A model generated the notes under the pieces. It made no database searches. It had not been told where the DNA came from and was given only the letters and a program-made list of their open reading frames with translations. A DNA stretch of 64,000 nt from an uncultured Methanobacteriaceae archaeon (GTDB lineage Archaea; Methanobacteriota; Methanobacteria; Methanobacteriales; Methanobacteriaceae), in contig CAVZGI010000009.1 in assembly GCA_963774795.1 (NCBI GenBank), positions 674,437-738,436 of the forward strand. The letters run 5' to 3'. How positions within the stretch are numbered: the first letter of the stretch is position 1; every line of letters begins with the position of its first letter. A program made the position numbers and the translations under genes. Shown piece by piece: positions 35,573 to 41,743 of this stretch.

Positions 35573-36706
35573 ATGCAAGAAGAATATTCTTATCAAGGCG
35601 GAGAAATTACCGGGGATAGTGGCCACTTTGAGAAAGAATCATTTTTAAATGAATATGAAGTATTAAGAGAGGACATAAGGTCTTCAACAGAGTACTTAGG
35701 GTTTTTGTTGGATCAAAACCCTGACCCGTGGTATCTTTATGATTTAAATGGATTTTTAGTTGATTGTAATAAATTATTTGAGGATTTAGTTGGGTATACT
35801 CGTCTGGATTTGATAGGAAAATGCTTTTTGCGTCTTAAATTGCTTCCACTCATACAAAGGGCCAGGGCTAAGATTATCTTGGATAAGAATGCTAATGGAA
35901 TTATTAGCGGGCCTGATGAATTTGAATTCATTAGAAAAGACGGTGAAATTATTAATGTTGAGCTTAAAACGTCTTTAATTGAGATTAAAAGTAAAAAATT
36001 GGTGATGGTAACTGTACGGGATGTTGAAAAACATTTAAATAAAGAGAAAGAGCTAAAAAAACGGACAGAATCTCGGGAAGAAATGATTGAAGAGCTTTAC
36101 CGTCAAATTGAAAAAAACTTGCAGATTGTTACCAGCCTCATGAATCTCCAAAAAGCCCATATGAGGGATGATAAAGATGCTGAACTCCTTCAAGACACTC
36201 ATAATCGGGTAAAATCCATTAGAAAAGCTTATGAAAAGCTTATTCATTCACCTGAACTTACTCGAATTAATTTTGCTGAATATTCTAAAAGTATTCTTTC
36301 TGGACTTTTAAGTACATATGCTCCAGAACCAGGTAATATACGACTTAATGTGGAAGTTGAAGATACTTTCATGGACATGGGAACCTCCATTCCTTTGGGA
36401 ATGATTATTACTGAACTGGTTTCTAATAGTTTTAGACACGCCTTCAAACCAGATGTGATGGGTGAAATAAGAATTATTTTCAGAAACTATCCGGATTATT
36501 ATGTGTTAAGAGTTCAGGATGATGGTGAAGGATTTCCCGACAGCGTAGATTTTGATAAAACTCCTTCTTTAGGCCTTCAACTGGTTAAAAATCTGGTAAA
36601 TCAAGTAGATGGTCAAATGAAGAGAAAATTATCTGGTGGGACCTGTTTCTCAATAGAAGTTCCTAAATTAGGTAGTTTAGAATTAGACAGGATATATAAG
36701 GGTTAA
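35573..36706 (+). CDS. PAS-domain sensor histidine kinase (HisKA_2 / HATPase_c)
   Basis: PAS fold, then H-box (LQKAHMRDDKD ... HNRVKS) and ATPase G-boxes (DDGEGFP, GLGLQLV). Confidence 0.75.
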   Translation: MQEEYSYQGGEITGDSGHFEKESFLNEYEVLREDIRSSTEYLGFLLDQNPDPWYLYDLNGFLVDCNKLFEDLVGYTRLDLIGKCFLRLKLLPLIQRARAKIILDKNANGIISGPDEFEFIRKDGEIINVELKTSLIEIKSKKLVMVTVRDVEKHLNKEKELKKRTESREEMIEELYRQIEKNLQIVTSLMNLQKAHMRDDKDAELLQDTHNRVKSIRKAYEKLIHSPELTRINFAEYSKSILSGLLSTYAPEPGNIRLNVEVEDTFMDMGTSIPLGMIITELVSNSFRHAFKPDVMGEIRIIFRNYPDYYVLRVQDDGEGFPDSVDFDKTPSLGLQLVKNLVNQVDGQMKRKLSGGTCFSIEVPKLGSLELDRIYKG

Positions 36707-38126: not shown

Positions 38127-40064
38127 TTATTCAATACAGAACTGTCTAACATTTTCTTTTTCTACAATTTCCCAAATTTTATCTTCTGGAAGATTTATTC
38201 CCATTAAAACTCCATTTTTATTCAGTTTCTTTGTTATATTGTGAATGATTTTTTCTTCGGGTGCAGCCACAGTATGGGTGTGTATATGTCGAGATATTTC
38301 ATAGAGCGCTGTGAGAGAACGCCGGGCATCAGGTTTTTTAAGCTCTTCTTCGCAATTATCAAGATCTGCTCGGTTTTTAAGATTCAAGTTACGTGTTACA
38401 ACTTGTCTAACACCGGGCAGGTAATGTTTTGCATCTAGTATTCTTCCGCCCTCACCAATAATTATTTCTTTATCGTCCAGGTTTCCCACGTCGTGTTTAA
38501 CCAGAATTTGAATTACTCGACCTGTTTTTTCGATAATTTCTTTAATTTCATTAGGGGTCATATTAACTCCTAATAAGAACCCTTTTTTACTTAATTCTTT
38601 TTCTACTCGATTTAGACTTTTAGTATCAGGGCCTGAAATTCTATGGGTGTGTATGCCTCCACCAGAAAGGGTATAAATCCGATCTAAAGATTCATATTTG
38701 CCCGCGTTTTTCTCCAGGTTATCTAAAAACTTTTTAACTTCCTTCATATCAGAAAGACCTATTTTACGCCGCAATGGTTCTCCAAAACCAGTGAAATAAT
38801 ATTCGATATCTTCCAGTGTGCAACCGTGTTTTAAAATTATTTCGGCTTCTTCCATAATATCAGAAACGCCGTGATTTTCTACAATAATCATTTCTGGCTT
38901 TATAACAACTTCTACCAACCGTCCGTACTTACGAGCAACTTCTTTAATTTCATCAGGCTCTAAATTAACTCCTAAGAGAATTCCTTCCTTTTTTAATTCC
39001 TTGGCTAATTTTTCCAGTGTTTCTTTATCTGGTCCGGAGATCCAGTGGGAATGTATTCCACTAACCGATTCGTATATTCTTTCTAAGGAATTTTTTCGGT
39101 TGATATCATCATCTAAACTTTCTAAAAATTTATTTAATTGATCTATTTTGGAAATTCCGATTTTTCGGGCTAATGGTTCTTTAAATTCAGGTAAATGGTA
39201 TTCTATATCTTCCAGGGTGCAGCCGTACTTGATTATTATTTCTGATTCCTTTCTGATGTCACCCACTTCATGCATCATGGTAATTTTCATCATGGTAGGT
39301 TCAATAGCTGCAAAATAAATGTCTTCCCCTCCACTGGTTTCAGGGGATATTACCCGGTCGGCTCCGGAGCGGTAAAGACGTTTAATATTTTCTCTTTTAC
39401 TGGCTCTAGATACAATCCATATTTCAGGATGAATCTCCCGGGAGGTCAAAGTTATGAAAAGATTATCCACATCTTCACCGGTGGCAATTATAACTCCCCG
39501 GGCCCTACTAATGCCTGCTTCTTTCAAGACACTTTCGTCAGTGGCATCCCCGGGTATGGCCAGTACATTAGGGTCTTCCCAAAGTTCTTTTTCCACTAAA
39601 TCCCGGTTTCTTTCAATAATTATGGCTTTTTGATTTCGTTCTTTCAATTCTTTAAAAACTGCTGCTCCAACTCTTCCATATCCACAAAGAACAAAGTGAT
39701 TTTCCATGGAAGTCATTTTTCTTCGTATTCTGGAGCCAGAAGCAATATCTTCTACTGTCATGGTTACCACCGATATACTAAGGCTGAAAACATAAGCAAT
39801 AAGTCCTACCCCTGCCAAAGCCAAGCTAACTGCAAAAAGCTTTTGTGCGGCTGTTTGGGGGATTATATCTCCGTATCCCACTGTAGCAACGGTTATAATT
39901 GTAAAATAAATAGCATTTATCGGATCCAGACCCATTATATAAAGAGATCCAATAACCCCATAAATGATTAAAATTACCAGGGCAATAAGAGCAAAATAAA
40001 ATATGGAAAGCGGTATTGCCTGGATATCCTCAGCTTTGGGTAGTGGTATACGTGAAGAGGCCAA
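38127..40064 (-). CDS. Two-TM K+ channel (TVGYGD filter) with an RCK/TrkA-N domain and three tandem C-terminal repeats of about 125 aa of unknown function
   Basis: TVATVGYGD selectivity filter; [16 protein letters not shown] Rossmann motif; repeats share [10 protein letters not shown] ... RIY..SGGIH(S/T)H.ISGPD ... LLGVN..P.EIKE. Confidence 0.8.
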
Positions 40065-40234
40065 TTATAACACCTCATTAATATGCCCTTTTTTATAATT
40101 ACCTTAAAAAATGGACTTGAATGAATAATAGACTTGAATGAATTGTTTTTAGGGATTAAATTATCTATTTAATAGATTATTCATTTGAGTTATTATTAAA
40201 TATTCTCTATTACAATTATATAAATAGTGATACT

Positions 40235-41743
40235 ATGAAACCGCTGGACATGATGGTGGCAGACTATAATGCAGAATATTTAGGAATTTCCCGACTCAGC
40301 CTGATGGAAAATGCAGGAAAATCCCTGGCCCAGGAGATATCCTATATTAATACCACGGGAAAAGTTATAATTTTCACAGGATCTGGTGGAAATGGTGGTG
40401 ATGGATTTGTAGCGGCTAGACATCTCTTGAATATGGGATTTAAAGTTAAAATAATTTTATTGACCCGGCCATCACAAATAAAATCTAAAGAGTCTCTCCA
40501 GAATTGGAATGTTCTGGAGAATATGGGTCCCTATTTATCCGATTTGGAAATTGAAATATGCACGGATTCTTCTCAAATTAATTTTGAATTATTGGGTGAT
40601 GATGAAGACGTCCTGGTGGACGCTATTTTAGGAACAGGAATCAAGGGAATCATTAGAGAACCTGTTAGATCTGCAATAGAATTAATCAATGCATCAAATT
40701 CAGTTAAGGTATCGGCGGATATTCCCAGCGGCATGGATCCTTTAACAGGGGATATAATTGATATTGCGGTGGATGCAGATTATACGGTGACTTTTCATCG
40801 CCAAAAATCTGGTCTGGAAAAAGCATCTCCTGATAATATTGGAAAACTAATAATCTGTGATATAGGGATTCCCAAGGAAGCTGAGGTGTTCTTAGGAGCG
40901 GGAGATCTTTTGAGAATTAAACCAAGAAATAAGGATGCTCATAAAGGAGCCAATGGTAACCTTTTGATAATAGGCGGTAGTAAAGAGTATGCTGGTGCTC
41001 CAGCATTGGCGGGATTGGCAGCATTGGCGGCTGGCGCAGATATGGTAACTATAGTATGTCCAGAATCTGCTTCTATTCCTATTAAATCTTATTCTCCTGA
41101 TTTGATTGTAAAAGGGCTTCCTGGGGATTACATTAATTCAGAAATGGTTGAAACTATTTTAGATTTATCTGATAATGCAGATTGTATTTTAATAGGCTGT
41201 GGGATGGGAAAAGAGAATCTAACCCGGAAAGCACTGGAGGTGCTTATTCCGAAACTTATTGAAAGAGAAAAACCACTGGTGATGGATGCCGATGCTTTAA
41301 AACTGGTTGATAAAGATTTAGTGAAAAATCAAGAGAATTTGATTATAACCCCCCATATGGGCGAATTTAAAACGTTTTTTGGTCAAAAATCATCGATAAT
41401 GCTTTTTGATATTAAGGAAAAAATAGCTGCATTTCAATCGATTTCTCAACAAATAAAAGGAACAGTTTTACTTAAGGGCAAATTAGACATGATTTTCAAT
41501 GGAAAAAAATTCCGGCTTAATAAAACAGGAAGCCCCGGAATGACTGTTGGAGGCACTGGTGATTGTTTAGCTGGTTTAATAGCAGCACTACGATCTCAAG
41601 GTCACTCTCCATGGGATTCGGCTTGTTTAGGTGCATTTATTAATGGACGGGCTGGTGAATTGGCTGAAAAAAGATGGGGTTATAATTTCACTGCATCTAA
41701 AATGATTGAATTTTATAGTGAAGCCATGAAACATGATTTTTGA
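40235..41743 (+). CDS. nnr: Bifunctional NAD(P)H-hydrate repair enzyme (epimerase plus ADP-dependent dehydratase)
   Basis: YjeF-N GSGGNGGDG motif and C-terminal carbohydrate-kinase-like GTGDCLAG motif. Confidence 0.85.
   Translation: MKPLDMMVADYNAEYLGISRLSLMENAGKSLAQEISYINTTGKVIIFTGSGGNGGDGFVAARHLLNMGFKVKIILLTRPSQIKSKESLQNWNVLENMGPYLSDLEIEICTDSSQINFELLGDDEDVLVDAILGTGIKGIIREPVRSAIELINASNSVKVSADIPSGMDPLTGDIIDIAVDADYTVTFHRQKSGLEKASPDNIGKLIICDIGIPKEAEVFLGAGDLLRIKPRNKDAHKGANGNLLIIGGSKEYAGAPALAGLAALAAGADMVTIVCPESASIPIKSYSPDLIVKGLPGDYINSEMVETILDLSDNADCILIGCGMGKENLTRKALEVLIPKLIEREKPLVMDADALKLVDKDLVKNQENLIITPHMGEFKTFFGQKSSIMLFDIKEKIAAFQSISQQIKGTVLLKGKLDMIFNGKKFRLNKTGSPGMTVGGTGDCLAGLIAALRSQGHSPWDSACLGAFINGRAGELAEKRWGYNFTASKMIEFYSEAMKHDF

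Follow-up and report, generated by a model that had tools for sequence, protein, structure and literature searches.

A predicted potassium channel of Methanobacteriaceae carries three tandem NiaR-type 3H domains in the place of the RCK-C lobe

The stretch of DNA analysed here, called the window throughout, comprises 64,000 nucleotides from an uncultured Methanobacteriaceae archaeon (assembly GCA_963774795.1, contig CAVZGI010000009.1, positions 674,437 to 738,436) and contains a gene for a 645-residue protein that joins a predicted K+ channel pore with two transmembrane helices (2-TM) and an RCK-N Rossmann domain to three consecutive copies of the 3H domain (Table 1). On the whole protein, Pfam reports Ion_trans_2 at residues 28-100 and TrkA_N over the Rossmann domain, followed by three stretches of 3H, and the scores of all of these lie far over the gathering cut-offs. 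An earlier note on this DNA, made from the letters and a list of open reading frames (ORFs), had described an MthK-like channel with a TVGYGD pore and an RCK-N domain, and the Pfam matches together with the filter residues bear this description out.

The C-terminal 390 residues consist of three tandem repeats of about 130 amino acids each, termed R1, R2 and R3. In blastp comparisons, R1 is 52% identical to R2 (E 2e-47) and 31% identical to R3 (E 4e-21), and R2 and R3 are 30% identical to each other (E 8e-20), a degree of similarity that by alignment is far beyond chance. These values, along with the three separate Pfam stretches, confirm the three homologous C-terminal modules that the earlier note had reported. 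Scored singly against the Pfam 3H model (PF02829, gathering threshold 25 bits), R1, R2 and R3 reach 74.4, 85.4 and 66.1 bits, each in a full-length match, and the whole protein reaches 209.7 bits in 3 stretches. The only significant sequence matches of the repeats in the PDB are to the bacterial niacin-responsive repressor NiaR, from T. maritima (1J5Y/9EBR) and B. halodurans (7CV0), with R2 matching the T. maritima protein at an E value of 2.7e-10 and R1 matching NiaR at 1.2e-6. The Pfam models of PHP and TrkA_C gave no match at E<=1 in the whole protein or in any single repeat, whereas the TrkA protein found elsewhere in the window, which served as positive control, had its RCK-C lobe recognised by the TrkA_C model (1.2e-9). 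As the repeats match PF02829 and NiaR, and as neither PHP nor TrkA_C is detected in spite of the working control, we assign the repeats by their sequence to NiaR-type 3H domains that occupy the place of the RCK-C lobe. The suggestions that the RCK-C lobe is missing and that the triplicated module resembles a ligand or metal sensor thus held up, and the proposed likeness to the first motif of PHP phosphoesterases did not.

Several details of the repeats need adjustment. The modules had been delimited at residues of about 265-397, 398-527 and 528-645; the repeats themselves stand, and the first domain begins about 7-9 residues earlier, with a beta-strand at residues 258-264 standing before H265. 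A motif of 10 residues said to lie near the start of each repeat is exact only in R2, with R1 and R3 differing from it, and its histidine is not among the three histidines that define the domain, the first of which is H265, H398 or H524. The block HxH...ISGPD, reported for every repeat, is present in R1 and R2, and in R3 the letters AAPE take the place of ISGPD. Each channel-type 3H also has a C-terminal beta-alpha extension made of LGVN and a helix. No winged-helix or helix-turn-helix domain was found by Pfam, the N-terminal half being Ion_trans_2 and TrkA_N, and the protein is accordingly predicted to have the sensor domain of NiaR without being a repressor of the NiaR family. A hidden Markov model (HMM) built from the repeats and run against the six-frame translation detected no further 3H genes in the window. 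An artefact of assembly or sequencing is ruled out, as over 100 genomes share the triple repeat, some of them complete and from cultured strains.

Table 1. Features of the channel gene and of its neighbours, in window coordinates. aa, amino acids; AF2, AlphaFold2 model.
Feature	Residues	Position	Strand	Basis or remark
Channel gene (pore, RCK-N, three 3H domains)	645 aa + stop	38127..40064	(-)	complete coding sequence, TTG start; ORF list, Pfam
Shine-Dalgarno-like GAGGTG		40071..40076	(-)	6 nt 5' of the TTG start; read from sequence
TM1 (outer helix)	19-42	39939..40010	(-)	AF2 helix 19-42; aligns with MthK TM1
Pore helix + selectivity filter	48-66	39867..39923	(-)	sequence; Pfam Ion_trans_2 5e-15
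Filter T61-V-G-Y-G-D66	61-66	39867-39884	(-)	sequence
TM2 (inner helix) running on into RCK-N	72-119	39708..39851	(-)	AF2; aligns with MthK
RCK-N / TrkA_N Rossmann domain	124-241	39342..39695	(-)	Pfam TrkA_N 4.8e-34
G128-Y-G-R-V-G133 within RCK-N, with E151	128-133, 151	39666-39683 (G128-G133)	(-)	sequence
3H domain 1 (R1)	256-389	38898..39299	(-)	Pfam 3H 8.9e-21; NiaR match 1.2e-6
3H domain 2 (R2)	390-519	38508..38897	(-)	Pfam 3H 3e-24
3H domain 3 (R3), most divergent of the three	520-645	38130..38507	(-)	Pfam 3H 3.4e-18; repeat alignment
Predicted site of R1	first His H265; acidic E273; His-x-His H338, H340
Predicted site of R2	first His H398; acidic E406; His-x-His H472, H474
Predicted site of R3	first His H524; acidic D531; His-x-His H595, H597
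TrkA	216 aa	29152-29802	(-)	TrkA_N + TrkA_C
TrkH	476 aa	29971-31401	(-)
Sensor histidine kinase		35573-36706	(+)	PAS + HisKA_2 + HATPase
nnr		40235-41743	(+)	YjeF_N + Carb_kinase

In B. halodurans NiaR, the residues His83, Glu91, His150 and His152 (H79, E87, H146 and H148 in T. maritima) form a metal site, which holds Ni in TmNiaR and Zn in BhNiaR; the carboxylate of niacin displaces a metal-bound water and is hydrogen-bonded to His83, and a hydrophobic pocket takes the pyridine ring (PMC7713382). The corresponding residues are found in all three repeats (Table 1), with the difference that in R3 the aspartate D531 stands for the glutamate after a deletion of 1 residue. Conservation was read from 50 orthologues with 65-89% identity to the window protein. 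In this set all 12 site residues of the three repeats are invariant amid surrounding positions that vary; the pair D531-K532 is likewise invariant, and position D530 is an aspartate in 41 of the 50. The mean column identity of the three repeats is 0.76-0.80, compared to 0.75 for the pore. Such a pattern points to three complete NiaR-type sites under strong purifying selection. In addition, the hydrophobic pocket is mostly kept in R1 and R2, where I, I, F, I, F and L are found at the positions of NiaR M88, V105, Y112', L119, F130 and M134.

The N-terminal half is conserved in the same orthologues. T61, V62, G63, G65 and D66 of the filter are invariant and Y64 is Y or F, by which the K+ selectivity filter is judged intact, and in the RCK-N domain G128 and E151 are invariant and G130 and G133 are glycine in 49 of 50, by which the domain is assigned a canonical dinucleotide-binding motif, GxGxxG...E. 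The form GxGxxG...D/E is the nucleotide-binding motif of GsuK RCK2, KtrA and TrkA as well (PMC3510474). A phmmer comparison with MthK covers residues 26-246 at E 1e-23. By sequence, the RCK-N domain has its best PDB match in RCK2 of GsuK (domain E 8e-18), and a Foldseek search with the full-length AF2 model (predicted local distance difference test score, pLDDT, 82.7; predicted template modelling score, pTM, 0.48) returns MthK (E 2e-15) and GsuK as the best matches. In this model TM2 is a single helix, residues 72-119, that extends into RCK-N.

The protein shares some features with MthK, GsuK and NiaR and differs from each of them in others. MthK (M. thermautotrophicus; 1LNQ, 6OLY) shares the 2-TM TVGYGD pore followed by an RCK-N Rossmann domain, but it has an RCK-C lobe and the Ca2+ ligands D184, E210 and E212, whereas the window channel has neither; A194, R220 and S222 align with the three ligands, with no variation at R220 and S222 across the family. 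Gating by Ca2+ in the manner of MthK is rejected on account of these replacements. MthK also carries CGWSES, without GxGxxG, at the place where the window channel has GYGRVG. GsuK (Geobacter sulfurreducens, gated by ADP, NAD+ and Ca2+; 4GX0-4GX5) shares the GxGxxG...acidic motif and, if the model is followed, a helix that links the inner helix directly with the ring, but it is built from two tandem RCK domains, each with RCK-C and with no 3H, in contrast to one RCK-N and three 3H domains here. NiaR (YrxA; 1J5Y, 9EBR, 7CV0/7CV2) resembles the channel 3H domains in the His/Glu/His-x-His metal and ligand site; it has one 3H on a winged-helix DNA-binding domain and a transcriptional output, whereas here three 3H domains come after a K+ pore and RCK-N. 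NiaR and the kinase-fused 3H domains described below are without the LGVN and helix extension of the channel 3H, and NiaR also has no counterpart of a 5-6 residue insertion found in the archaeal domains.

The protein start deserves mention, as the identical protein at NCBI/ENA (P0002) begins at M44 and is 602 aa long, with the loss of TM1. Orthologues are 640-650 aa long and their alignments span 98-100% of the 645-aa ORF, from which we take the 645-aa form to have the real start; the GAGGTG placed 6 nt before the TTG (40064) likewise favours this start over the 602-aa database call. The public record looks like a mis-annotation of the start codon, with the start region at 40062-40076.

Database searches yielded more than 1000 matches, the best 120 of which all carry PF07885, PF02254 and PF02829. 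Their sources are Methanobacterium, Methanothermobacter (M. thermautotrophicus and M. marburgensis among others) and related metagenome-assembled genomes. A scan with one genome per species gave 109 relatives, and the 80 that were retained nearly all bear the label Methanobacteriaceae or that of one of its genera. Full-length orthologues of Methanobacterium and Methanothermobacter (66-95% identity) occupy the same position between nnr (YjeF) and ftr, have the identical architecture of Ion_trans_2, TrkA_N and three 3H domains and show no substantive difference; examples are those of M. marburgensis (WP_013296434.1/ADL59224.1) and M. thermautotrophicus (WP_269889648.1). When R2 was searched against 1.8 billion representatives, only 49 proteins were found at E<=0.001. 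Among them were a single cluster of triple-3H channels, five of single-3H channels of 365-391 aa (Methanobrevibacter, Methanopyrus and one further lineage), and 2PGK-like P-loop kinases fused to 3H.

Channels with one, two and three copies, for which the earlier note had proposed a search, were all found. The same design of pore, RCK-N and 3H occurs with a single 3H in Methanobrevibacter (WP_224424725.1) and Methanopyrus kandleri (AAM02762.1), and some of the single- and double-3H channels have a degenerate filter or 3H site. Compared with R1, R2 and R3, the single 3H of Methanobrevibacter shows identities of 59%, 40% and 29%, respectively, and its gene has the same position between nnr and ftr as the window gene. 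As this syntenic single 3H is closest to R1, R1 is taken to be the ancestral copy from which the array grew, and by these identities the triple array is the product of tandem duplication of a single 3H. Beside the triple-3H gene, four peat or bog Methanobacterium genomes hold a second paralogue of about 515 aa with two 3H domains, of R1 and R2 type. In these two-copy paralogues (L079:5001-6554, L080, L081, L082) the Glu and the second His are absent from the second 3H (GIHTITISGPD), and their neighbours are different, being SnoaL-like, metallo-beta-lactamase and amidohydrolase genes. The single-3H homologue of Methanopyrus sp. SNP6 (L083:6001-7146, P0147) has the filter TGVGCAN instead of TVGYGD and, to judge by this change, may no longer be K+-selective; it is flanked by a TP_methylase gene and HEM4 and lies near hypA and a cobW-family gene. 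In the kinase-fused 3H domains (P0131, P0149; NCBIfam NF008995) the first His is replaced by Asn and the Glu by Val, and that of P0149 is also without His-x-His, so these domains probably do not bind metal in the fashion of NiaR.

The channel gene is divergent from nnr, which encodes a bifunctional NAD(P)H-hydrate epimerase/dehydratase (NAD, nicotinamide adenine dinucleotide), and lies upstream of ftr, an arrangement found in 68 of 85 loci, with many of the other loci being short contigs. The pairing of nnr with the channel is kept in Methanobacterium, Methanothermobacter and Methanobrevibacter and is not found in Methanopyrus. It may reflect a pyridine-nucleotide link or merely conserved gene order, and as genomes of this family generally keep their genes in order, the trio of nnr, channel and ftr is taken as a weak functional hint. 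Just upstream of ftr lies a sensor histidine kinase, with no response regulator seen adjoining; 19 of the 85 loci have the kinase in this position, and so does M. thermautotrophicus (L001). About 7 kb from the channel, TrkA and TrkH form a canonical K+ uptake pair, and TrkH is near the channel also in M. thermautotrophicus (L001).

Taken together, these features are best explained by a ligand-gated tetrameric 2-TM K+ channel of the MthK/GsuK type in which the RCK-C lobe has been replaced by three NiaR-type 3H domains, a reading that we consider likely. By analogy with NiaR, each 3H would hold a divalent metal (Zn2+ or Ni2+ in NiaR), and a small anionic metabolite, probably one bearing a carboxylate, would be bound through the free coordination position of the metal and the first His. 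By analogy with RCK channels, the RCK-N domain would take an adenine nucleotide, either NAD+/NADH or ADP/ATP; in GsuK, ADP and NAD+ bind to RCK2 and activate the channel (PMC3510474). Occupancy of these sites would then alter the packing of the cytoplasmic assembly, and the change in packing would open or close the pore through the one continuous helix that is predicted to join the assembly to the inner helix. On this account K+ flux would be coupled to a metabolic signal.

A number of points weigh against the ligand-gated channel or limit how far it can be specified. No experiment on any member of the family was found in the searchable literature, in which nine papers use the term '3H domain', none of them on a channel and none with a mention of RCK. 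The ligand is not readable from the sequence: the archaeal 3H domains have the 5-6 residue insertion, an extra helix, relative to NiaR, and an Arg (R329/R462) stands at the position of the NiaR pocket residue Leu141, in a stretch where the alignment is uncertain. Because of the insertion and this Arg, niacin itself is not implied as the ligand. The second 3H of the two-copy paralogues is without Glu and one His, and with that site degenerate, not every 3H copy need bind a ligand. With a pTM of 0.48, the arrangement between domains is unreliable in the model. Finally, there is one RCK-N per chain, whereas channels of the MthK/GsuK kind assemble eight RCK domains, either from tandem RCK or with a soluble RCK made from an internal Met, the way taken by MthK. 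Here the methionines that could serve such a start, M117 and M120, have no Shine-Dalgarno-like sequence upstream, are not conserved and have no counterpart in the Methanobacterium orthologues, which leaves a separately made soluble RCK unsupported.

A more specific form of the proposal, in which a pyridine carboxylate or other metabolite of the NAD pathway at the 3H sites and NAD(H) at RCK-N gate the channel jointly, appears unlikely at present. If it were true, pyridine-nucleotide status would act directly on the K+ flux and membrane potential of Methanobacteriales, with nnr in the same physiology, and no ion channel before it would have been shown to use a NiaR-type metal-dependent metabolite sensor. 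A ligand shared with the pathway of cyclic-2,3-diphosphoglycerate (cDPG), an idea prompted by the fusion of 3H to 2PGK-like kinases in the same taxa, was considered as well. K+ is the counter-ion of cDPG, and in Methanothermobacter cDPG is both synthesised and hydrolysed under the regulation of K+ (PMC1224877; PMC12136491). The link is weakened as the kinase-fused 3H domains are without the first His and the Glu, as the scores of the kinase family NF008995 do not reach the cut-off of true 2PGK models, and as the channel hosts are mostly mesophilic Methanobacterium species.

The 3H domains could alternatively be direct sensors of transition metals (Ni2+, Zn2+, Co2+ or Fe2+), with the metal gating the channel as Ca2+ gates MthK and no organic ligand involved. 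Methanogens have high requirements for Ni and Co, a demand that such a sensor would suit. The conserved His3-Glu/Asp site is of the transition-metal type, as the Ni of TmNiaR and the Zn of BhNiaR indicate (PMC7713382), and the single-3H homologue of Methanopyrus adjoins hypA, a cobW-family gene and tetrapyrrole genes. That neighbourhood is not common to the Methanobacteriaceae loci, however, and the hydrophobic pocket beside the metal, mostly kept in R1 and R2, suggests an organic ligand, such that we regard pure metal sensing as improbable. Somewhat less probable still is a purely structural role, in which the 3H domains are modules of dimerisation and assembly that replace the RCK-C lobe and the helix cross-over, and regulation comes from the nucleotide site of RCK-N alone. 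The 3H of NiaR is its dimerisation domain (PMC7713382), the RCK-C lobes of GsuK are packed loosely at the periphery of the ring (PMC3510474), and 3H domains without a complete site exist in the second position of the two-copy paralogues and in the fusions to 2PGK-like kinases, which are without the first His and the Glu. A structural role alone, however, gives no reason for the invariance of all 12 site residues within otherwise variable surroundings. Lastly, the idea that the repeats are partial PHP-phosphoesterase-like modules or divergent RCK-C/TrkA-C lobes is refuted for practical purposes by the Pfam results and the TrkA_C control.

The architecture had been thought undescribed, which proved not to be the case. 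Orthologues already bear the names '3H domain-containing protein', 'NAD-binding protein' and 'voltage-gated potassium channel' at NCBI/JGI, and the genome record of the M. kandleri homologue describes an uncharacterised domain joined to an NAD-binding K+-transport domain. A statement in Rodionov et al. 2008 (PMC2330245), citing Anantharaman, Koonin & Aravind 2001, places 3H in 'TrkA-module proteins'. The architecture is thus already known as a sequence observation, from Pfam, where 3H is a family of long standing, from RefSeq and from the 2001 domain survey as cited there.

The family is real and well conserved, an uncharacterised sibling of MthK with a different, probably metabolite-binding, sensor. 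Ligand gating is modelled structurally in the main on RCK-regulated K+ channels, such as MthK, GsuK and BK, and MthK comes from Methanothermobacter. In this genus and in related ones there is a second channel, which has a conserved pore, a nucleotide motif, no Ca2+ site, and three putative metal-dependent small-molecule sensors instead of RCK-C. This channel would be a tractable new example of a non-RCK sensor domain coupled to a K+ pore, and it is a worthwhile biochemical target rather than a new kind of system. The identity of its ligand would reveal the metabolic signal that controls K+ flux in these methanogens.

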